This document shows, one piece after another, positions 51,491-64,000 of a stretch of 64,000 nt of DNA. Every line of letters starts with the position of its first letter. Position 1 is the stretch's first letter. The notes under the pieces were generated by a model, which was not told where the DNA came from, did no database searches, and saw only the letters and a program-made list of their open reading frames with translations. The position numbers and the translations under genes are program-made. Source of the DNA: Myxococcota bacterium. GTDB taxonomy: Bacteria > Myxococcota_A > UBA796 > GCA-2862545. The stretch spans positions 1-64,000 of the forward strand of contig JBCCQY010000029.1 of NCBI GenBank assembly GCA_039208735.1, written 5' to 3'.

Positions 51491-54400
51491 ATGTTCACGG
51501 TCCTCGCGTTCTGGCTCGCCTGGTTCGGCTGTCGCACCGCCGACGATGAAGATGGCAACGAGCCCGTCGACTGCGCGTTTCAGGTATGGCCGGATGCGGA
51601 TGGCGATGGCTACGGCGATGATGCGGCCAAGCCCATCGTTCAATGCGACGTCGAAGCGGGATTTGCCGCGCAGGCGGGGGATTGTGACGACACCGACGCG
51701 GCCATCTCGCCCGCCGCGGACGAAGACTGCAGCAACGTCGACCGGAACTGCGACGGCCAGGCCACTGAGGGCGCGATGGGCACGTTGTGGTATCGCGACG
51801 GCGACGGTGACGGCTATGGCAACGGCGAGGCCCAGATGGCCTGTGTCGCGCCTGCCGACCACGTCGCACGGGATGGCGATTGCGATGATGGCGATGCATC
51901 GGTGAACCCTGGCGCTTCGGAGTGGTGCAACGAGGTCGACGATGACTGTGATGGGTCCGTCGACAATGACGCCGCCGATGTGATCACGCAGTACCTCGAC
52001 GCCGATGCCGACGGATTCGGGGTGGAAAGCGTCACCGTGACGGCATGCCCCGCAGAGCCCGGCTACGCCCCGGTTCCAGGAGACTGCAACGATAAGGACG
52101 CCTCCATTGCCCCCGATCAGCCCGATCGATGCAACGACGGGATCGACGATGACTGTGACCCCAAGACCGATGAAAACGTGGTTTCGGGCGCGGCGTGGTT
52201 TGCCGACCTCGATCTCGACGGCTTTGGTGCCGGAACTGCCGCTGTGGCGTGTGAGGCGCCGTCGGCGGACCTCGTGGCCGACGGAACCGACTGCGACGAC
52301 ACCGATTCGGCCATCTTTCCTGGTTCGCCCGAGATTTGCGATGATATCGATAACGATTGCGATGGGCAAACGGATGAAGAGGCGGCGGATGGCACCGCCT
52401 ATTACGTCGATTCAGACCTCGACGGGTTCGGGACGGGGGAAGCGCTCGTTGCCTGTGCCCCTGTCGTGGGTCGGGTGACGGTCGACGGCGATTGCGACGA
52501 TGCCAACGCCACCGTGAACCCGAGTGCGATCGAGGCGTGCGATGGCCTCGACAATGACTGCAATCCCCAGACGGTGGACGACGATGCGCCAGACGCTCCA
52601 GCGTGGGTGGTCGACGTCGATGGAGACGGCTTTGGGGATCAAACCGCTAAGGCGGTCCAGTCGTGCATCCAACCCAAGGGGTTTGTCGCCCTGCTGGACG
52701 CAACCGACTGCGACGATGCGGATGCTCTCGTCAACCCGGGCCGCCCCGAGGTCTGCAATGGCGGCGTGGACGATGATTGCGATCCGACGACCGACGAAGA
52801 AGCGTTGGTCACCTGGTACGCGGATGTCGATCAGGACGGGTACGGTGATCCAGGGTCGACCACCACCGCGTGCATTCAGCCCGTGGGCTTCGTTGACAAT
52901 GCCGACGACTGTGACGACGTAGCGAGCGACCTCAACCCCATCGACACCCCCGGGTGCATCCAAGACCACTGCGGGACCATCGACCAGTCTGAGACTTGGC
53001 GGAACACGGTAGCACACACCGTTTCGTGCGACGTGAAGGTCGAAGGGGCAGCGAAACCCACGCTGACCGTAGAACCTGGGGTCGAGGTATCGTTCGAACC
53101 CAACACCGAACTCCGGGTCGGGGTGGGGGGAGACGGGCGCATTGTGGTCGACGGGGACGCGGCCGAGGTGTGGTTCACCTCCCGCGAGCCACTCCCCGCC
53201 GCCGGGGATTGGGACGGCCTGACCATTGGAAGCCGGGATCAAAGCTCGGTGCTGACTGGCCTCGTGGTGGAGTATGCGGGGCGCGATGGCATTGGGGGCG
53301 TACGCCTGTATGGGGACGACATCATCGTGGACCGGCTTACCGCGAGGTACAACGCCAACGATGGGCTGCACGTCGACGCAGGTGAGCCGAGCATCGTGGG
53401 GAGCACGTTCACCAACAACACGGGCAATGGGGTAACCATCGACACCTCGGCCGGGTTGTCGCGACTCGATACCGCGGGCACGCCAGGGCCGAGCTTTCAA
53501 AACAACGTGTCGACCGCGAACCTCGGGCGACCGCTAACCTTACCGGGCGACGTGGCCGATGAGATCGACCCGAACTGCCTGCTTACGGGCAACGTGGTGG
53601 ACGCCATCGAGCTGACGTCAGGCACCCTGCGGTTCACGGGAACCTGGGCCGATCACGGCATTCCCTATGAAGTACGCGCCAATGCGACGATCAACGTCGA
53701 GGACGGTCCCCAGGCCCAGTTGACCATCGCGGACGGGGTCGAGATTGTCTTCGACACGTCGGCCGGCATGCGGATTGGCTATTCCGAAGCTGGGCAACTC
53801 ATCGTGGACGGCCACACCGAAGGGGTGGTGATGACCGGCACCTCCGAAATCGTGGCCCTCTCGGACAGCTGGGACGGGCTCACGTTTGGCCCGAATGATC
53901 TCGGAAGCGTCGTGAATGGCCTCCTCATCGAATACGGAGGCAGCAACGCATTCGGCAACCTCTACCTCTGGGATGCGTCGCCGACGTTTACGAACGTGGT
54001 CTCACGGTATGCGGATGGGGATGGGTTGGCGGTGACCGGTTCATCGGCCGCACCTTCGATCGCCGACTCGCGTTTCGAAGACAATGACGAGTACGGGGTG
54101 AACGTCGCGTCCAACAGCGGCTTGGTCCCCGATACGGGATTCAGCGGCAACGTGTGCTCGGGTAACGGCTTGGCTCCCATGGTGTTGCCTCCAGATGCGT
54201 TGGGGGCCCTCGATGCGACGTCGAGCTTTGCGGGCAATGGCCAAGCCATTCAAGTGCACAGCGGAACCGTGCTGAACGACGCCACCTGGTCGCTCGTAGA
54301 TGAGACCTACGAGATGACAGGAACGATCTTCATCGGGGGACCTCGGGACCCAGTGGTGACGGTCGAGGACGGGGTGCACATGACGTTTGCTCGCAACACC

Positions 54401-55408
54401 ACCTTCAACGTAGGAACCAACGACGATGGCAGCCTCATCGTGTTGGGTGACGAAACCGGGGTGGTCATGGAGAGCGCCGAACCCATCCCCGGTGAGGGCG
54501 ACTGGTACGGCATGCGAGTGGGGGCGAATCGCGGCGATGCGACGACCGCATTGCAGGGCCTTACCCTCCGTCACGCGGGGGGCTCGGATACCGGCGTGGG
54601 CGCTGCGCTTGAACTCATCGACACCGATGGGTGCGGCACGCAAGAGGACGAGCTGGTGCTCGAGGACTTGGTGATCGAACGTTCATCGAAGTACGCGCTA
54701 TATGCGGCCGCATGGTCAACGCTCCGCATCGATGGAGCCGTATTCACCGATAACGTCGACGGTTGTGTCTACCTCGATGCTTCGTCGTTCTGTCAGGGGC
54801 CGACCGTCACGTCGTTCACCGGCAACACGTGCACGGGCTCGTCCGAGTTTGGGGTGTGGCCGCTTTCGGAGGCGGATGCGCTGGACGAGACTTCGGTATA
54901 TCCCGGGCCCATTTTGTTCGACGATGCGGCGCTGTCGACCGACGTGACGCTCAAGAACCTTGGCGTGCCCTACCACTTCCTGTCTTCGGTCACGGTTGGA
55001 GATTCGAGTGGGCCCGTGCTGACGGTGGAGTCGGGGAACACGTTGGTGTTCGACTTTGGTGAGGGCTTGTACGTCGCGACCTCGAATTCCGGCGGAGTAG
55101 TGTTTGAACCCGGTACGCCCGAGACCACGCTGACCTCCATCGCCAACTCGCCCGCTCCAGGAGACTGGGACGGCCTACGCATCGGAACGTTCTGCACCGT
55201 GGCGGACGTCGAGGATGTCGTGCTGACCTATGGCGGTGACAACGGCGTAGGCTCGCTTTACATCGATCGCTGCAATGTTGGTGGGCTCATCGATCGAGTG
55301 ACCATCGAACAGAGCAGCACCTGCGGCTTGTACTACGACGACGGCCTGTCCACGATGACCGTAGGAACCGTCCAATACGCCGGGAACGGAACGGACGTTT
55401 GCCCGTAG
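51491..55408 (+). CDS. Large surface lipoprotein: MopE-type Cys/Asp repeats + right-handed beta-helix repeats
   Basis: Lipobox-like FGC; seven DxDxDG(Y/F)G...DCDD...P...C..D.DC units; four (G/D)xWxG beta-helix modules. Confidence 0.85.
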   Translation: MFTVLAFWLAWFGCRTADDEDGNEPVDCAFQVWPDADGDGYGDDAAKPIVQCDVEAGFAAQAGDCDDTDAAISPAADEDCSNVDRNCDGQATEGAMGTLWYRDGDGDGYGNGEAQMACVAPADHVARDGDCDDGDASVNPGASEWCNEVDDDCDGSVDNDAADVITQYLDADADGFGVESVTVTACPAEPGYAPVPGDCNDKDASIAPDQPDRCNDGIDDDCDPKTDENVVSGAAWFADLDLDGFGAGTAAVACEAPSADLVADGTDCDDTDSAIFPGSPEICDDIDNDCDGQTDEEAADGTAYYVDSDLDGFGTGEALVACAPVVGRVTVDGDCDDANATVNPSAIEACDGLDNDCNPQTVDDDAPDAPAWVVDVDGDGFGDQTAKAVQSCIQPKGFVALLDATDCDDADALVNPGRPEVCNGGVDDDCDPTTDEEALVTWYADVDQDGYGDPGSTTTACIQPVGFVDNADDCDDVASDLNPIDTPGCIQDHCGTIDQSETWRNTVAHTVSCDVKVEGAAKPTLTVEPGVEVSFEPNTELRVGVGGDGRIVVDGDAAEVWFTSREPLPAAGDWDGLTIGSRDQSSVLTGLVVEYAGRDGIGGVRLYGDDIIVDRLTARYNANDGLHVDAGEPSIVGSTFTNNTGNGVTIDTSAGLSRLDTAGTPGPSFQNNVSTANLGRPLTLPGDVADEIDPNCLLTGNVVDAIELTSGTLRFTGTWADHGIPYEVRANATINVEDGPQAQLTIADGVEIVFDTSAGMRIGYSEAGQLIVDGHTEGVVMTGTSEIVALSDSWDGLTFGPNDLGSVVNGLLIEYGGSNAFGNLYLWDASPTFTNVVSRYADGDGLAVTGSSAAPSIADSRFEDNDEYGVNVASNSGLVPDTGFSGNVCSGNGLAPMVLPPDALGALDATSSFAGNGQAIQVHSGTVLNDATWSLVDETYEMTGTIFIGGPRDPVVTVEDGVHMTFARNTTFNVGTNDDGSLIVLGDETGVVMESAEPIPGEGDWYGMRVGANRGDATTALQGLTLRHAGGSDTGVGAALELIDTDGCGTQEDELVLEDLVIERSSKYALYAAAWSTLRIDGAVFTDNVDGCVYLDASSFCQGPTVTSFTGNTCTGSSEFGVWPLSEADALDETSVYPGPILFDDAALSTDVTLKNLGVPYHFLSSVTVGDSSGPVLTVESGNTLVFDFGEGLYVATSNSGGVVFEPGTPETTLTSIANSPAPGDWDGLRIGTFCTVADVEDVVLTYGGDNGVGSLYIDRCNVGGLIDRVTIEQSSTCGLYYDDGLSTMTVGTVQYAGNGTDVCP
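51587..52960 (+). repeat. Seven tandem coding MopE-like repeats (last one partial)
   Basis: Repeats of about 65-70 aa visible in the translation; boundaries approximate. Confidence 0.8.
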
Positions 55409-56544: not shown

Positions 56545-57723
56545 TTGGTCGATGGGCAGGCCTCTCGTGAAGCATTGCGGTTTCAAGAGATCGACCTGCT
56601 CCGCGGGATCATCATGGTCTTGATGACCCTCGACCACGTCCGAGACTACGCGTGGGGGGCCGCGGTCGGTGACCCCATGCGGGTGGGCGAAGTGAGTGGA
56701 GGCATGTTCGTCACGCGGTTTCTAAGCCACTTCTGTGCTCCACTCTTCATCGTGCTGGCCGGCATGTCGGCGAGGTTCCTGCAGCTCAAGGGAATGTCGA
56801 CGGCCGAGTTGTCTCGTCACCTGGCCCTTCGAGGCGCATTGCTCGTGGTTCTCGAGGTCACCGTCGTCGATCTGGCGTGGAACTTCTATCCGCCGTACCC
56901 CATCACCTATCTGCAGATCATTTGGGCGATTGGCTGGTCAATGGTGTTCTTGGCCATCCTTGTGCGTTTGCCAATGGTGGCGATCGGAACCGCGGGGGGA
57001 GTGTTGACCGTGGGCCATGGGGTCATCGAGGCCCTTCGTCCCGCTGAGCTCCATGGGTGGGGCTACGTCTGGTTTAGCGTCCTGTTCGAAAAGAACGTCC
57101 TCGACACGGGGCTTGGCTTTGCTGTGCGAACCACCTACCCGCTGGTCGCTCCGATGGGCCTGATCGCCATCGGCTACGTCCTGGGCGGATGCTACGCTCC
57201 GGGCGTCTCGCAGGCTCAGCGCCGCAAGGTGTGGGTCGTTGCCGCAATCACAGGCCTGCTGGCCTACGCGGTACTACGCCTCACCCACCTGGGCGATCCA
57301 CATCCCTTCGTTGCCTTCGACAATCCCTGGTGGACGTTGATGTCCTTTTTCAACCCCACCAAATATCCGCTGTCGCTGCAGTTCGTCCTGCTCACGGTTT
57401 CGCCCGGATTGCTGTGGCTCACCATCACCGAGGTTCCCCGATGGACCAGGCCGTTGCTCGCATTGGGGCGCGTGCCGCTGTTCTACTACATCGTTCACCT
57501 CTACGTGATCCACGCCGCCATGCTGGGACTGGCCTTCCTCCAAGGCTTTGGCCCCCAGACGATGGATTTCCAAGCTCGGTTGGGTGGGGTTCCGGAGGGG
57601 TTTGGCCTGCCGTTGTGGGCCGTCTATGTCACCGCAGGTGCCATCTCAGCGGCGTTGGTCCCGCTATGCGACCTCTACGGGCGGGCACGGAGTCGCTACG
57701 GAGGCTTCCTCCGCTTTTTTTGA
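56545..57723 (+). CDS. DUF1624 / HGSNAT-like membrane acyltransferase-family protein
   Basis: IDLLRGIIMVLMTLDHVRD, TRFLSHFCAPLF..LAG, KYPLSLQF, GRVPLFYY..HLY. TTG start after GAGGAG. Confidence 0.85.
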   Translation: MVDGQASREALRFQEIDLLRGIIMVLMTLDHVRDYAWGAAVGDPMRVGEVSGGMFVTRFLSHFCAPLFIVLAGMSARFLQLKGMSTAELSRHLALRGALLVVLEVTVVDLAWNFYPPYPITYLQIIWAIGWSMVFLAILVRLPMVAIGTAGGVLTVGHGVIEALRPAELHGWGYVWFSVLFEKNVLDTGLGFAVRTTYPLVAPMGLIAIGYVLGGCYAPGVSQAQRRKVWVVAAITGLLAYAVLRLTHLGDPHPFVAFDNPWWTLMSFFNPTKYPLSLQFVLLTVSPGLLWLTITEVPRWTRPLLALGRVPLFYYIVHLYVIHAAMLGLAFLQGFGPQTMDFQARLGGVPEGFGLPLWAVYVTAGAISAALVPLCDLYGRARSRYGGFLRFF

Positions 57724-57788
57724 TTCCGTGATCTTTTTTCGAAGCGACGTTGCTCTAGATTCGTTTTTCGTTTAGAACGGCGCCGAAC

Positions 57789-57803
57789 TGAAAGTCATTT
57801 TCA
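57789..57803. promoter_or_regulatory. Fur-type box upstream of the nicotianamine synthase gene
   Basis: 7-1-7 inverted repeat TGAAAGT-C-ATTTTCA, AT-rich in a GC-rich genome. Confidence 0.75.
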
Positions 57804-57831
57804 ACAACAGGCCGATCAAGCGAGACCTGTC

Positions 57832-58866
57832 ATGAAACATCACCCTGTCCGGTCTCCGTTTGGAGAGCCGGCCGTGGCTTCGTGCGCCGTGGACGCGCAG
57901 GAGATTTCTTCAGCTGCTCACATGGTCCTCCGCCGCTTGGTCGATGGCCCAACCAGTGTCTACCAAGCCTTGACCGACCACATCGTTGCGAGCCAATCGC
58001 CGTTCGAGCCCTGTCCGACGGTCAATGGGGCGCTGAGAGGGTTGGTCAAAACCCTACAGGGTGAGGGGCTTGCCGAGCCGGAGGAGATTCGCGCGGTGCA
58101 TGCCCAGGCTCTGACACTGCTTCAGCAGGTTGAAGAGTGGCAGGATCGAGCGCACACCGTGCGGGACTTTGCGGGGCGAGCGGAAGCCGCACTCGAACGA
58201 GCGTACGCCCCCACACTTGCTGTGGAGCACTCGCCATCGGCCACGCCGCTGGCGAGGCTTTGCGACGCCCTCGGTCCGTTTCCCTATCTTGAGAACTATC
58301 AGCGACTTGTAGAGGCGGAATCTCGCTTGTTGCGGGGAGTCCGGCACGTGTGGTTCGGAGGAGCAGGTCCTGCACCCCTTACCGGGTTGCTGCTTCATGC
58401 CACCCTCGGCGTGCGCGTAACCCTCGTGGACGTCGATGCCGAAGCGGTCGAAGTGAGCCAAGCCCTCGTGACCCGACTCGAACGGATGGGGGCATTGATT
58501 CCTGGTTTTGTGCAGACTCGCCATGCCGATCTTCGGGACGGGATCGACACCGATGACGTGGATGCGTTGTTGATTGCAAGCCTGGTGGATGAGGAGGCCA
58601 AGGTTCAAGTCGCACAGCATGTTGCGACGAAGGCCCGTAGACCTAGGCTCCTCTTTCGATCGGCTCGAGGACTGTGCAGCGCATTTGCGTATCGACCGAC
58701 TCCACGCGCTCGTATCGAAGCCGCGGGATGGAGGTTTGTGGGGCACCTTGCTCCCGAAACCCAGGCCTCAGTTCGAGACCCAGAGGTCCTGGCGATTGTC
58801 GATCGACGCATTTTGAATTCAACCGAAGTCTTTGTTGCACAGGGGCGGGAGGCCGACCGTGGGTAG
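57832..58866 (+). CDS. Nicotianamine synthase family protein (SAM-dependent aminobutyryl transferase)
   Basis: PCPTVN..L..LV, AEAALE, FPYLENY..L...E, FGGAGPAPLT, IASLV, FRSARG...AY match NAS family motifs. Confidence 0.88.
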   Translation: MKHHPVRSPFGEPAVASCAVDAQEISSAAHMVLRRLVDGPTSVYQALTDHIVASQSPFEPCPTVNGALRGLVKTLQGEGLAEPEEIRAVHAQALTLLQQVEEWQDRAHTVRDFAGRAEAALERAYAPTLAVEHSPSATPLARLCDALGPFPYLENYQRLVEAESRLLRGVRHVWFGGAGPAPLTGLLLHATLGVRVTLVDVDAEAVEVSQALVTRLERMGALIPGFVQTRHADLRDGIDTDDVDALLIASLVDEEAKVQVAQHVATKARRPRLLFRSARGLCSAFAYRPTPRARIEAAGWRFVGHLAPETQASVRDPEVLAIVDRRILNSTEVFVAQGREADRG

Positions 58867-60103
58867 TGTGATTCCGCGACGCCGATGGGTGTTTTTCATC
58901 GATCCCATCGAAGAGAGCAGCTACCCCGTCACGGAGACGGGCTACGCGATGCTCTACCGCGCATGGTGCAGAGCGAAGGTTGATGGGGATGAGGTTTATG
59001 TGGTCTACCCTTCAACCCCTCTTTCGTTCACCCCGCACCGGACGTTCGCGTCCCCTCGGTCGGTGGTGTTGGGGCGACGGTTGATCGGCTTTTCAGCTTC
59101 GCCTTACGAGCACTTTCGAAGCCAGCGAGACACCTATGACGCTGCGGCCGACGTCGGATCGTTGCCTTGCCACGAGGAAGGGCCTCCGACGGAGTTGATT
59201 CTCGAGGAGGCCGATGTCATCGTGTTCCGACAGGAGACGGGCGAACCGGTCCATCGGCGACGCCTCTTGCGGGCCTTGGCCAAATTGGAATCGCGGGTGT
59301 TGGTCTATCTTTCACCTCGCCTGGCCCTCGACCCGGAGTTTGGTTCCAAGGTCTTGCCGGGACGCATTGCGCCCGAATGCGTGCCGGTCAGCTGGTCGAC
59401 CACCGACCTTCAGGGATCTCGGTACGAAAAGGTGGATGCGGCACTTGAGTTCCTGCGCGGTCCCCTGAAGCGAACGCGCACGGCGATCGTCAAGCCCGCG
59501 TTTGGCGACAACGGAGAGGGCATCACGGTGCTCGGGGTCTCCCCGTTGGATCCCTACCTCCGGCCGCGAAACGCCCGCGACCACCTCATCGAACTGCTGC
59601 AGCGACATGGCGAGGTGGTGGTGCAGGAGTACGTGCCCTCCGTAAGGGCGCCTCGAAACGTTGAAGGCGCTCTCGATCAGGTGCCTTTGGATCGCTGTGA
59701 CTTCGGTGAAATTCGATTCTTGCTCATCGATGGCACGGTGCCACGGGACCGAGCCGGGTGCCCGATCTTGGTGGCACGTCGCACCCCAACGCCGACGAGT
59801 CTGCTTGCCGACAGCGGAATCTCCTATCCAACTACGCTTTCAGATGCCGAACGTCGGTTCCTCGATCGCGTCGGCCAGGCTTACCTGCGGTACGGCATCC
59901 ACTTTGGCGGAGGCGATTTGATTCGGACGGCGAACCCAGAGCGTCCGTTCGTCTTCACCGACGCTGCCCGGGCAGTTTGCGGTCATGCGGTCGTGACGGG
60001 GGCTCTCAACGGTGAGCCCTACTTGATCGTAGACCAGGTCCTAGACAGCATGGAGCGGCACTGGATCCGTCGGGTAGCCGAACGCCGCACGCGGGTCGCT
60101 TGA
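58859..60103 (+). CDS. Glutathione-synthetase (GshB)-like ATP-grasp ligase
   Basis: GshB-like N-terminus (FFIDPIEE...TGYAML..A), IVKPAFGDNGEGI, VQEYVP, GEIRFLLIDG, GGDLI. GTG start after GGGAGG overlaps the NAS stop. Confidence 0.8.
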   Translation: MGSVIPRRRWVFFIDPIEESSYPVTETGYAMLYRAWCRAKVDGDEVYVVYPSTPLSFTPHRTFASPRSVVLGRRLIGFSASPYEHFRSQRDTYDAAADVGSLPCHEEGPPTELILEEADVIVFRQETGEPVHRRRLLRALAKLESRVLVYLSPRLALDPEFGSKVLPGRIAPECVPVSWSTTDLQGSRYEKVDAALEFLRGPLKRTRTAIVKPAFGDNGEGITVLGVSPLDPYLRPRNARDHLIELLQRHGEVVVQEYVPSVRAPRNVEGALDQVPLDRCDFGEIRFLLIDGTVPRDRAGCPILVARRTPTPTSLLADSGISYPTTLSDAERRFLDRVGQAYLRYGIHFGGGDLIRTANPERPFVFTDAARAVCGHAVVTGALNGEPYLIVDQVLDSMERHWIRRVAERRTRVA

Positions 60104-60104
60104 G

Positions 60105-60959
60105 TCATGCGGGATTGGACTGACGGTAGGCGCCAGGCGTGACGCCCATCGCCTCGCGAAAGACGCGTGCGAGGTGACTCGAACTGCTGAAGCCGAGCTG
60201 GTAGGCAATGTCGCCGATGGGGAGATCCGTCGTGTTGAGGAGTTCACGGGCGCGTCGAAGGCGTTCCTGCCGAAGAAGTCCGAAGACCGAAGTGCCAAAG
60301 TGGGTGTGGAACCCTCGCGTGAGCGATCGAGGGGAAAGGCCCATCTGGGCTGCAAGGTCAACCAGCGCAGGTGGGTTGGTGAGGTCGCGCAGAAGCAATG
60401 CACGGGCCCGCGCGCTCCAATGAGGCTCACCGTCTCCGTTTCGGAGGCGTGCGAGCAACCGAAGGGCATCCGCCTCTCGGTCGAGGTCGTCGGCCTCGTC
60501 CGGGTCGAGCAGGCGTTGGGCAAGGGTCAGGGCGTGGGGCGCGAGGACCCGTTGGCCAGCCGGGAGAAGCGCTTCGTGCAGGTGGTAGACCAGATGCTTG
60601 GCCTGGCCTGGGGGGGCGCGACGCTCTCGCACCGGCGTATCAAAGACGTAGCCAAATCCAGGCTTGAGGACCGTCCAACCCGTATCGGTGCGGAGATGGC
60701 TCGTGCCCTGGACTGCGACGACCACCGTAGTGCTGACGGGTTGGAGCGCCACTCGGGGACAGCTGTGGTACTCGCGGCCATACCGCATTCGTATCGCCGA
60801 AAACGCTCCTCGAGAGAGCTGAATACGACGAATCCATCCGAATCCGAACCCCGCGGGAAGCGCATAGTGTAGGCCGCCCTCACGCATCTGGCGTATTGTC
60901 ATGGGTGTACCGTAGATAGCCAGGCGCATGGGGTGCTCCGCCGTGGGGTGCTCTTTCAA
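60105..60959 (-). CDS. AraC family regulator (PchR/YbtA-like)
   Basis: LAAQMGLSPRSLTRGFHTHFGTSV...RLRRARELL...IAYQLGFSSSSHLARVF..MGVTPG. Start uncertain. Confidence 0.9.
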   Translation of the reverse strand: MKEHPTAEHPMRLAIYGTPMTIRQMREGGLHYALPAGFGFGWIRRIQLSRGAFSAIRMRYGREYHSCPRVALQPVSTTVVVAVQGTSHLRTDTGWTVLKPGFGYVFDTPVRERRAPPGQAKHLVYHLHEALLPAGQRVLAPHALTLAQRLLDPDEADDLDREADALRLLARLRNGDGEPHWSARARALLLRDLTNPPALVDLAAQMGLSPRSLTRGFHTHFGTSVFGLLRQERLRRARELLNTTDLPIGDIAYQLGFSSSSHLARVFREAMGVTPGAYRQSNPA

Positions 60960-61071
60960 CGTCCGTAAGGTGCTCTCGTCAACGCCAGGATGCGCGTAGA
61001 AAAGCCCTATGCAGACGGCCGCATCTTAGTTGCCTGACGCGCGCTCATTCCTCTTTTTCGGAGGCCTGTCC

Positions 61072-62013
61072 ATGGGTTTCGATAGGCGTTCCTTTCTCCT
61101 TGCCGGGGCCGCATCGCTTGCGTGCCCGGTTTTGGCTCATGGTTTCTCTCCCCGAGGTTCCAACATGTCTACTGACCTTCGGCGCATGGCGGTGGGTGAG
61201 GTTGCGCTCGCGATTCGTCAACGCCAGACGCCCGGCACGCCGAGGCTGTTCATCCACGGCTCCCTTGAAGATCATCGGGGCTGGGATGAGGTGGTCGCGG
61301 CCCTACCGGTCGATGTGCCTTGGGTGGTCTATGACCGCCGGGGGCATGGTGCGAGTACGAATATGACTGGCCAAGGTCGACTATCGCAGGACGTCGAGGA
61401 CGTGGCTCGCTTGATCGAGCAGCTGGGCAAGGGACCCATTCACGTCGTGGGACATTCGTATGGTGCGAACGTAGCTATCGCGTTGGCAGGGCGCTTTCGC
61501 AAAGGGGTCAAGAGTCTTGTGCTCTACGAACCGCCCGTGTTCGGCTTGTTGCGTGGCGTACCTGAGGTGGCCAAGCCCCTGCGGGCGGCCCAACGCTCGA
61601 TGGGCGAGGCGAAGTCGCTCATCGAGGAAGGCGCTTTGGAGCGTGGAACGAAGCACTTTGTCGAAGAGGTCGCGTTCGGGACCGGAAGTTGGGGCGCGTT
61701 GCTCGATGCCAATGCACGAGGACGGATGCTTGCTCATGCCGACACGTGGCTCGATCAAGCCCGCGACCCAGAGCGGTTTGATATTGACGTCACGACCTTG
61801 GGGACGCTGCGCAATGCTTCGGGGAACTCCGTCGTCACCCTTGTGTCTGGCGCGGCGTCCTTGGCAACGTTTCGGGGGGTCGTGTCGCAGATCCGATCGA
61901 GGGTTCCTACCGTACGGCACGTCGAGATTCCGGGCGCTGGCCACGGGGCTCCTCTTTCGCATCCGGTCGAGTTCGCGGCGGTCATCGAGGCCCACGTTCG
62001 ACGCCTTCGCTAG
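61072..62013 (+). CDS. Tat-exported alpha/beta hydrolase
   Basis: DRRSFLL twin-arginine signal, HGS, DRRGHG, GHSYG, GAGH; GGAGG RBS. Confidence 0.85.
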   Translation: MGFDRRSFLLAGAASLACPVLAHGFSPRGSNMSTDLRRMAVGEVALAIRQRQTPGTPRLFIHGSLEDHRGWDEVVAALPVDVPWVVYDRRGHGASTNMTGQGRLSQDVEDVARLIEQLGKGPIHVVGHSYGANVAIALAGRFRKGVKSLVLYEPPVFGLLRGVPEVAKPLRAAQRSMGEAKSLIEEGALERGTKHFVEEVAFGTGSWGALLDANARGRMLAHADTWLDQARDPERFDIDVTTLGTLRNASGNSVVTLVSGAASLATFRGVVSQIRSRVPTVRHVEIPGAGHGAPLSHPVEFAAVIEAHVRRLR

Positions 62014-62897
62014 CTTCGGAATCGTTGCAAGGTGGCGACGGCGTAGTCCAACCGTAGGCGCATTCCGCCCGTCGGCGTCCGTTCAGAGAAATCCTGAAGG
62101 TGGTCCGCCAGCGCGGCAAGGGCATCGCTTTTGCTCGACGGCGCCACGCGGTCGAAAAGCGCGATCCACGGAGGGGAGTAGCGACACAATTGGCGCGCGA
62201 TGACACCAACCGAGCTGCATTTGAGCCAAAGGATGCGGGATTCGACTTGGAGGAGTTGGCCAGTGTCCTGACTCAAGAGCTGCTCGAGCCCGGCCTTGGT
62301 GCTCCAAGGGGTTGGATCGGCTCGTTGCGGTAACGATTCTGTCAGTCCTACGATCGCGTCTGGAATTTCGCCCAATGCCGAGTTCGGACGCCACGCGGTG
62401 ATCCGCACGAGGCCGCCCGGACGCACGCTGCGAAACAGCTCGCCCATGGCTTGATGAGGGCGAGCCGACAACATGACGCCAAATGCCGAAGTGACAAGAT
62501 CGAACCCTTGGAATTCCCTTAGGTCGTGAAAGGAGCCCTTACGGCAAGTCAAAGGGAGCTTCGCACCGTTGGCGCGCGCCCCTGCAATCGTCAACCAGGG
62601 TTCCGCAATGTCGAGCGCCGTGACCTGCGCACCGCCTTGAGCTGCCGCAAGGGCTACGGTGCCGGTTCCCGTGGCGACGTCGAGCAGGCGTTTGCCCTTC
62701 AGATTGAGCCCATCCAGACACGCCAGCGAAGCGGGCACAAGCCACTCGCCGATGATGTCATACCGCCCTTTCGACCAGCGACGTTCGGATTGCTTGTCGT
62801 GGACGAGGTGTCCGGTGACCCCCGGTTCGGTGGGTTCAAGTGGTTCCGACGTTCCTGCTGCAGAGAAATCTGCAGATAACCATGGTCGATCCGTCAT
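62010..62897 (-). CDS. Class I SAM-dependent methyltransferase
   Basis: LLDVATGTG, FDLVTSAFGVM, VRPGG. Confidence 0.9.
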   Translation of the reverse strand: MTDRPWLSADFSAAGTSEPLEPTEPGVTGHLVHDKQSERRWSKGRYDIIGEWLVPASLACLDGLNLKGKRLLDVATGTGTVALAAAQGGAQVTALDIAEPWLTIAGARANGAKLPLTCRKGSFHDLREFQGFDLVTSAFGVMLSARPHQAMGELFRSVRPGGLVRITAWRPNSALGEIPDAIVGLTESLPQRADPTPWSTKAGLEQLLSQDTGQLLQVESRILWLKCSSVGVIARQLCRYSPPWIALFDRVAPSSKSDALAALADHLQDFSERTPTGGMRLRLDYAVATLQRFRS

Positions 62898-62918
62898 TTC
62901 GGCCCACTCTGATGGTTT

Positions 62919-62933
62919 TGAAATTCGTTTTCA
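62919..62933. promoter_or_regulatory. Fur-type box upstream of the methyltransferase gene
   Basis: TGAAATT-C-GTTTTCA. Confidence 0.65.
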
Positions 62934-63053
62934 ATACTAGCGGATGGCCGCCAACTTCGCCGCCGAGAACACCTCAGCGTTCGAAGTCCTGACGTTTCGC
63001 GACCTGCATCGTATATCGAATTAGTAGTTGCCTGTTCTTGAGCGATTGATAAA

Positions 63054-63074
63054 TGAAAATGACTTTCATTTTCA
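63054..63074. promoter_or_regulatory. Tandem overlapping Fur-type boxes upstream of the ABC transporter
   Basis: TGAAAAT-G-ACTTTCA (exact reverse complement of the 57789 box) plus a second site offset by 6 bp, TGACTTT-C-ATTTTCA. Confidence 0.8.
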
Positions 63075-63104
63075 TGATTGAGACTTAACCGGGCGGAGGC
63101 GTGT

Positions 63105-64000
63105 ATGAAGCTTCTCATGCCGTATTTGAAGCTCCACTGGGCGACATTGGGGACGGCCATCCTGCTGGCGGTTGGCGGGGCACTGCTGGAGCTGTTGCCC
63201 CACGGGATCGTCTATGCGGCGGCGCTCGACGTTTTCGCGAGCCCGCCACGCACCGATCGTCTGCTTCTCTGGGCGGGGCTGGCGATGGGAGGGGTCGTGG
63301 TTCGGTTCCTTCTGCTGGGAGGATCGCTCGTGCTCAGCCACAAGGTGGCCTTTCAGGTCCTACGGTCGCTTCGGGAGGCCTTGGTGCAGCGGCTGGCCGC
63401 AAGCCCCGCCCAAGCACGGGATGGCCATTCTCCAGCCTCCCTGAAGAAGGTCCTCGTTGAGGATGTCGATGGCCTCGAGAACCTCTTCGCGCACAACCTC
63501 GTGGACTTGGCCAGTGGATTCCTCGTGCCGATCCTGGCCTGGATCGTGCTGATTCAGGTCGATTCACGCCTCGCGTTGGCCAGTGTCGCGCTGGTTCCCG
63601 TGGCGTTCCTTTCCATGGCCTTCACCATGCGCGACATGAACCAGCAGTTCGTGGATTGGCATGGGGCAGAAGCACGCGCCAACTCCAGTATTCTCGAGTA
63701 CCTACGCGGCATCGCCGTTTTAAAGGCCCACGATGCCGACGCTAGCTCGCTGGCTCGAGTTCGGGGGGCGGTCGAGGGGGTGGCGAACCTCGCCGTCACC
63801 ATGACGAAGCAGAGTTCGATCGGCTACACGTTGTTTTCAAGCTTCTTGCAAAACAACATGGTCGTCATCCTGCCTATCGGGGTGTGGCTGCACCAGACGG
63901 GAGCGATCGACACCCCCGCCTTGGTGTTGTTCATCGTGCTTGGGTTTGGGCTCACCGCGCCGTTGCTGAAGCTGCTGTTCTTGTTTGGCAATCTGCAACA
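63105..64000 (+). CDS. YbtP/IrtA-type ABC transporter (TM domain), 3' truncated
   Basis: Not in the ORF track because it is open at the window end. Translates MKLLMPYLK...SHKVAFQVLRSLREALVQRL...LKKVLVEDVDGLENLFAHNLVD, typical of exporter-fold siderophore importers. Confidence 0.85.
   Translation, partial: MKLLMPYLKLHWATLGTAILLAVGGALLELLPHGIVYAAALDVFASPPRTDRLLLWAGLAMGGVVVRFLLLGGSLVLSHKVAFQVLRSLREALVQRLAASPAQARDGHSPASLKKVLVEDVDGLENLFAHNLVDLASGFLVPILAWIVLIQVDSRLALASVALVPVAFLSMAFTMRDMNQQFVDWHGAEARANSSILEYLRGIAVLKAHDADASSLARVRGAVEGVANLAVTMTKQSSIGYTLFSSFLQNNMVVILPIGVWLHQTGAIDTPALVLFIVLGFGLTAPLLKLLFLFGNLQ

Follow-up and report, generated by a model that had tools for sequence, protein, structure and literature searches.

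The window considered here, the 64,000 bases that open contig JBCCQY010000029.1 (C29, bases 1-64000) of assembly GCA_039208735.1 (G000) from a Myxococcota bacterium, carries towards its end overlapping genes for a nicotianamine synthase (NAS) family protein and an ATP-grasp protein. A Fur-type operator at 57787..57805, with its core TGAAAgTcATTTTCA at 57789, is placed 45 bp 5′ of the NAS start. The NAS gene (57832..58866, forward strand) encodes 344 residues assigned, by Pfam family PF03059 and by a fold like that of the enzyme MtNAS, to the NAS-family aminocarboxypropyl transferases. Its partner (58859..60103, same strand) encodes 414 residues of an unannotated family which fold and homologue comparisons derive from the glutathione synthetase GshB; we refer to it as the ligase. 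The ligase reading frame begins with GTG at 58859, 6 bases 3′ of GGGAGG, and its first 8 bp are shared with the end of the NAS gene. No match to a sigma-70 promoter was found at the locus. Upstream of the operator a terminator-like hairpin and T run (57699..57723, forward strand) ends an HGSNAT-like membrane gene and parts that gene from the pair, although this is one consensus match and a weak one, with 5.6 such matches expected by chance in the region.

The assembly comprises 9.4 Mb and is 92.7% complete and 6.15% contaminated. Sequencing runs containing the stretch bear the label marine metagenome, and the closest homologues with a name are assigned to Myxococcota. Across the stretch no gaps or frameshifts appear in contigs of the run that is its likely source, which are not independent of the assembly. 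A second run, of low depth and hence weak as evidence, displays 10 variants within the NAS-ligase pair, seven of them synonymous.

Sequence and structure of the two enzymes

The NAS protein matches PF03059 with an E value of 7.9e-15 and a score of 55.4 bits against a curated cut-off of 27.1, and retrieves MtNAS (PDB code 3fpe) with an E value of 2.7e-10 in a PDB sequence search. Its model (pLDDT 87) has MtNAS as the best Foldseek match followed by CntL, with a target TM score of 0.79 to 3fpg, and is predicted to consist of an N-terminal helical domain and a Rossmann domain for S-adenosylmethionine (SAM), as in these two enzymes. Conserved features include Glu118, Glu122, the segment FPY150-152, Tyr156, a GxGP motif and Arg276. 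The Glu118/Glu122 pair (E-x3-E) and Tyr156 are kept in all 13 NAS sequences compared; Tyr156 aligns with the catalytic Tyr107 of MtNAS, whilst Glu122 corresponds to Glu81 of MtNAS and Glu77 of AtNAS1 by motif rather than by structural superposition. According to PMC10248798 and PMC10491745, AtNAS1 cannot do without the tyrosine and the E-x3-E residues, which also act in MtNAS. The enzyme looks intact; by analogy with its family it would transfer a 3-amino-3-carboxypropyl (ACP) group from SAM.

What might the acceptor be? MtNAS, an archaeal enzyme (PDB codes 3FPE, 3FPG and 3O31), makes thermonicotianamine (tNA) from glutamate and two molecules of SAM (PMC10491745), and it provides the best sequence and fold match here, with its tyrosine retained and with no need of the opine dehydrogenase CntM. 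The identity between the two is only 18-19% however, and MtNAS has no described ligase. The motifs LxPxxxVNxxLxxLV, ExxxExH, FPYxxNYxxL, GxGPLP and RSA match, by eye, the plant, moss and fungal sequences in the supplement of PMC10248798, and a plant NAS cluster is the top structural Atlas row. In contrast, the plant VGMD motif was not found. Twelve of the 13 sequences read ASLVD or ASL(V/I)P and one AALVP, so that the motif ends in VD or VP, and plant NAS too has no described ligase partner. PMC10248798 places VGMD near the reaction chamber and reports that AtNAS1 needs it. Since the motif is missing, nicotianamine itself is not assured as the product, and it is more cautious to assume an amino acid as acceptor of the ACP group.

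The ligase has no Pfam match at an E value of 0.1. The combination of PF02951 and PF02955 that denotes GshB is absent, NCBIfam offers a weak MptN match alone, and weak PF02955 labels appear on some homologues. The profile confirmation foreseen in the earlier note on this DNA, which had described an NAS gene coupled to a GshB-like one, holds for NAS, above its cut-off, whereas the ligase is assigned by its fold and by hhalign. PDB sequence searches returned nothing, or non-significant matches to glutamine synthetase. The model (pLDDT 89, built from 30 homologues) matches Escherichia coli GshB with a Foldseek E value of 2e-16 and a VIA Z score of 28.2, the rmsd being 2.5 over 307 residues; the next family by fold is RimK with Z of 21. 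An hhalign comparison with a seven-sequence GshB alignment gave 99.7%.

The whole GshB fold (PDB code 1GSA), including the N-terminal domain, is shared, as are the residues for ATP and acyl-phosphate. The two ATP-binding lysines and the aspartate Mg ligand of the ATP-grasp fold are present. Equivalents of GshB Lys125, Lys160, Asp208 (as Glu), Arg210, Arg225, Asp273 and Arg86 occur in 85-89 of the 89 rows of a ligase alignment, assembled from 74 proteins of a word-indexed search and 15 locus proteins, partly redundant and with fragments included. We take the functional roles of Lys125, Lys160, Arg225 and Arg86, and the location of the gamma-Glu-Cys site, to be those generally assumed for GshB. 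For Asp208, Arg210, Asp273 and the Mg-binding Glu281-x-Asn283, the roles of Glu281 and Asn283 included, we follow PMC11117183. The catalytic set of the ligase looks intact.

The differences from GshB are marked. Sequence identity to the E. coli enzyme is 18-19%, and in a tree the ligases form a clade on a long branch separate from GshB. There are three insertions, the sequence D-A-A stands in place of E-x-N, and the loop after the second Mg ligand is rewritten to ARSVCGH; in GshB the residues at this point form part of the gamma-Glu-Cys site. We also note Cys-His pairs, C104-H105 and C374-x-H376, that are near-invariant in the ligase family and absent from GshB, a possible metal site.

Conservation of the pair and its link to iron

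The word-indexed search gave 73 ligase relatives at 45-61% identity, and a search of 1.84 billion representatives gave 14 clusters at E values up to 1e-10, beyond which the next full-length matches are true GshBs. A single-sequence scan of genome contigs with the ligase produced no match, whereas a profile scan of the same contigs found the loci. DNA is available for 18 ligase loci, eight from metagenome-assembled genomes (MAGs), eight from metagenome contigs, the present window and a second position in the source genome on contig C240. Four of them (L009, L010, L015 and L016 in our numbering) are too short upstream, which leaves 14 that are informative. A NAS gene is directly upstream on the same strand at nine, full-length in the window, on C240 and at L003, L007, L008 (a Pseudomonadales MAG), L012, L013 and L014, and as a C-terminal fragment at L011. 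The gap between the genes, measured at seven loci, ranges from -8 to +36 bp. In one protein, P0080, the two are joined in a single 949-residue chain, with NAS at residues 10-436, the ligase at 511-915 and a linker of about 75 residues. The NAS-ligase pair is real and conserved.

The second pair in the source genome (G000:C240 6588-8863, L069) is divergent, with NAS 33% and the ligase 58% identical to those of the window and an overlap of 1 bp. Its tetranucleotide profile is ordinary, and it possibly differs in product or regulation. Two further genomes, G001 and G002, carry the same NAS subfamily on contigs apart from the ligase (E values of 1e-79 and 1e-84). Among 401 genomes sampled evenly across the phylum, strong matches to both the NAS and the ligase profiles were confined to G000 and to the same two places. 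When the homologue P0083 served as query, G005 alone was found among 401 genomes of the phylum of P0083. The viral contigs and plasmids searched held no ligase relatives. For genome scans we relied on our own NAS profile, as PF03059 missed known NAS genes in G406 and G715.

An all-against-all comparison of 16 neighbourhoods revealed no third gene following the pair. A sodium:solute symporter subfamily (41-55% identical) near the pair in three genomes was considered as an importer and rejected, since the G000 orthologue and the L003 copy belong to sugar modules with LacI and glycosidase genes. At L012 (13573-17176) and L013 (12962-16046), which are near-identical, a type 2A encapsulin with cysteine desulfurase cargo occurs 2-3 kb 3′ of the pair; it was not seen elsewhere.

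Two possibilities raised in the earlier note would have undone the coupling, a CntM partner or a ligase that simply makes glutathione. No CntM was found in any of five carrier genomes searched, G000 (92.7% complete) included, by a search that reached 3e-130 when applied to a control genome; with the CntM of that control as tblastn query, the best match in G000 had an E value of 0.52. G000 gave no IucA/IucC siderophore synthetase either. A canonical gshB, distinct from the ligase gene, is present in all six carriers (G000, where it is on C17 with 214.6 bits, and five others), which makes glutathione synthesis an unlikely task for the ligase.

The box TGAAAATnATTTTCA occurs in the window at 57789 (one mismatch), 62919 (two) and 63054 (one), bearing out the Fur-type boxes that had been noted before the pair, a methyltransferase gene and a transporter gene. 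It matches the delta-proteobacterial Fur consensus WTGAAAATNATTTTCAW published in PMC545781. At up to two mismatches there are 63 occurrences in the genome, against one and four in two mononucleotide shuffles of 200-base blocks. The site upstream of NAS scores 23.4 with a position weight matrix trained without C29, where the training set has a median of 24.5 and a minimum of 14.1. Elsewhere in G000 such boxes precede FeoB, five TonB-receptor-type proteins, a siderophore-interacting protein, a CREG/PNPOx-DUF2470 protein and PepSY_TM, and also a flavodoxin reductase, an MFS protein, DUF4856 and a periplasmic binding protein. The 13 boxed downstream genes submitted to a domain scan were chosen by eye and the selection is biased; despite this the regulon is plain, and the box marks what its sequence predicts to be the iron regulon of the source genome. 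From the predicted operator we infer Fur regulation of the pair, which in the source genome is tied to iron regulation.

Other carriers add to this picture. The pair at L014 has a strong box (19.5), and weak sites with scores of 6-8 precede the ligase loci L007, L013 and L001, where they are the best in the locus, and L002, where the site is second best. The L008 pair adjoins imelysin, DHOR and TonB-receptor genes. A boxed gene elsewhere in the source genome (G000:C82 19175-22246, L067) fuses a fatty-acid hydroxylase/sterol desaturase domain to a TonB-dependent receptor, two components that are separate neighbours in L008. In the region L032 8559-19001 of G001 a stand-alone NAS gene precedes a Fur-family regulator gene, a DUF3526 ABC system and a weak ZIP match, a context that points to control in this genome by some metal besides iron.

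Neighbouring genes

The genes that follow the pair are as the earlier note described them. An AraC-family regulator (60105..60959, reverse strand) faces divergently an alpha/beta hydrolase with an RRxFL Tat-like leader (61072..62013, forward strand), and there is no box at AraC. A class I SAM methyltransferase (62010..62897, reverse strand) is behind the box at 62919..62933 (two mismatches). The box at 63054..63068 (one mismatch) is 5′ of an operon that starts with the first half of a heterodimeric ABC transporter of the YbtPQ/IrtAB type (63105..64000, forward strand, continuing to 64844), for which the best single-half PDB match is 6p6i_A, a yersiniabactin importer entry. Of the parts expected on the next stretch of the contig, the second ABC half was found (64841-66574), followed in the same operon by an LCM methyltransferase (66571-67422). 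Another box pair and a TetR gene occur before the contig ends at 74521, and neither a TonB receptor nor an exporter or cntM is encoded between the window end and that point.

Beyond the window, tandem Fur-type boxes with a 6-bp shift stand 5′ of a 286-residue open reading frame (ORF) without a Pfam match (G000:C29 67525-68416). Within it, at 51491-55408, is the gene for a 1305-residue protein of secreted type, in which MopE-like repeats, putatively metal-binding, accompany a beta-helix. Five methyltransferases of the LCM family (PF04072-like) in G000, on C21, C52, C105, C148 and at C29:66571-67422, either follow a Fur-type box or belong to an operon that has one. The family is a recurring member of iron-uptake modules, found beside an ABC pair in G001 also.

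Proposed pathway, alternatives and significance

On balance we lean towards the view that the pair makes an amide-extended metal chelator of the nicotianamine type under iron limitation, without an opine dehydrogenase, substrates and product being deduced from sequence. NAS would move at least one ACP group from SAM to an amino acid with release of 5′-methylthioadenosine (MTA), in the manner of MtNAS and CntL. The ligase would then use ATP to phosphorylate the terminal carboxylate of that product and couple an amino acid or amine to it; the peptide might instead be formed first and the ACP transfer follow. The NAS product, HOOC-CH(NH2)-CH2-CH2-NH-CH(R)-COOH, would be a look-alike of gamma-Glu-Xaa, the type of substrate used by GshB, one carbon shorter and amine-linked. 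As an ACP-amino acid keeps the distal alpha-amino-acid end of gamma-Glu-Xaa, minus the carbonyl, there may be a chemical reason why a GshB paralogue was recruited. The final compound, ACP(n)-Xaa-CO-NH-R, would present amine, carboxylate and amide donors, and might serve intracellularly to buffer or carry metal, or else use general transporters.

Several observations weigh against this proposal. The Mg-binding Glu281-x-Asn283 of GshB is replaced by D368-A-A370 in 88 of the 89 ligase rows, a register read by eye from the strand pattern as hhalign and MAFFT slipped in that region. When 14 other upstream regions (13 and that of the C240 pair) were each scored against their own locus, nine had no box, including C240 with 479 bp upstream, and none of the four weak sites reaches the minimum of the training set. 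The loci L012 and L013 are near-copies. The P0080 fusion is one ENA sequence and could reflect a lost stop codon, although even then it would count as a further linked NAS-ligase locus. Mirror-tree support is thin and depends on two rows, as rho of 0.65 (p 0.009) drops to 0.18 (p 0.28) once L008 and L013 are removed. Three ligase loci in incomplete MAGs, two in G003 and one in G004, have no NAS that could be found. Six of the eight ligase-bearing MAGs have NAS. The three NAS-less ligases form one nested clade (SH-aLRT 98). Of the two G003 copies (L004 855-2192 and L006 6001-7326), one carries an in-frame TAG near its start and the other a degenerate ATP loop, and they are possibly decaying after loss of NAS. 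Finally, no transporter is conserved, since across the 16 neighbourhoods neither an exporter of the MFS, EamA or MatE type nor an importer recurs, which makes an intracellular role as plausible as secretion.

Could NAS produce the chelator by itself? A finished nicotianamine- or thermonicotianamine-like compound, with the GshB-like protein as kinase, cyclase or ATP-driven metal-loading partner, would suit the alanine at the Asn283 position, the Cys-His pairs as a metal site, the ligase copies found without NAS, and the resemblance of NAS to MtNAS and to plant and actinobacterial enzymes, which need no partner. We consider it unlikely, as the full acyl-phosphate set (Arg210, Arg225 and Asp273) and both lysines are conserved in the ligase and the folds closest to it are all carboxylate-amine ligases. 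Rather unlikely too is a glutathione-like redox or metal buffer made when iron is short, either ACP-Cys-Xaa, in which the amine link would be hydrolysis-proof, or an ACP-modified gamma-glutamyl peptide. True GshBs are the nearest relatives of the ligase outside its own family, the GshB N-terminal domain and the Arg86 equivalent are kept, and an intracellular buffer is compatible with the lack of a conserved exporter. Yet the ARSVCGH loop is rewritten, the carriers already have GshB, and the characterised products of the NAS family are chelators or their precursors (PMC10491745). That the ATP-grasp protein is a second glutathione synthetase which merely happens to sit beside a NAS gene is scarcely credible. 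The best fold match is GshB and some homologues bear weak PF02955 labels, but the low identity to E. coli GshB, the long separate branch, the canonical gshB of every carrier and the conserved linkage and fusion with NAS all speak against it.

The earlier note took the neighbours into one system with the pair, in which the YbtPQ-like ABC pair would bring the product back into the cell and AraC would sense it. This extension of the model to the whole 57.8-67.4 kb island now appears very improbable. Adjacency and shared boxes favour it, and a small opening remains in that a clear ABC orthologue is present in carrier G001 and was found in none of 25 family relatives. Against it, no homologue of AraC, the hydrolase, either methyltransferase or either ABC half occurs at the 16 other ligase loci (L001-L016), and the C240 pair is without the AraC, hydrolase, methyltransferase and ABC neighbours. 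G001 is one of five other carriers and the only one with a clear ABC orthologue; there it belongs to a module of its own that also contains an LCM methyltransferase and two ORFs judged by eye to be TonB-receptor-like, and neither NAS nor the ligase is on that contig. The four other boxed LCM methyltransferase loci of G000 have no NAS, and AraC is box-less and opposed to the hydrolase. In the simplest reading the region gathers several iron-starvation units, each with a box of its own, namely the biosynthetic pair, the methyltransferase and the ABC operon, together with a box-less AraC-hydrolase pair. The ABC operon is likely to be a separate siderophore-uptake unit.

How does the amide-extended chelator pathway relate to known systems? 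To our knowledge, and within the literature surveyed, the characterised bacterial NAS-like pathways all finish the chelator with an opine dehydrogenase. The pathways to staphylopine, pseudopaline, yersinopine and bacillopaline (CntL and CntM) resemble the present one in that a NAS-fold enzyme is followed by a second, chelator-completing enzyme and the operator is metal-responsive. They differ in that here the search for CntM was negative and an ATP-grasp protein takes the second place, and our NAS profile scores CntL at 23 bits and MtNAS at 40 bits. CntM clusters, as PMC7438024 describes them, carry an exporter (EamA, MFS or MatE) or importer, and none is conserved with the pair. Azetidine-2-carboxylate (AZE) synthase, AzeJ or VioH, is likewise an enzyme consuming the ACP group of SAM that is encoded beside an ATP-grasp gene (legend to Fig. 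4 of PMC11794875), but it is of another methyltransferase-fold family and absent among the listed PDB sequence and fold matches of NAS. No description of a NAS and ATP-grasp pathway was found in the literature searched, a scope that left outside subscription reviews, for example Laffont and Arnoux 2020, and the Iyer 2009 amidoligase survey.

The pair works like nicotianamine-type chelator pathways but lacks the features that define opine clusters, plant-type NAS and GshB. Tentatively, and with a little less assurance than an even chance would give, it may represent a third route to nicotianamine-type metallophores, in which a recruited glutathione synthetase paralogue forms a peptide-linked chelator, beside the poly-ACP route of plants, fungi and archaea and the opine route of CntL and CntM. 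With both profiles matched in one of 401 phylum genomes sampled the module is rare, so its ecological weight is limited. CntM has served as the hook for genome mining of opine metallophores (PMC7438024); a NAS and ATP-grasp module would escape such mining, and Pfam, which is blind to the ligase. The pair offers a two-enzyme, directly testable route to what would be a new chelator scaffold, and the ligase would clearly exemplify a glutathione synthetase paralogue that has changed its substrate, within an ATP-grasp family that has an unusual D-A-A metal motif.

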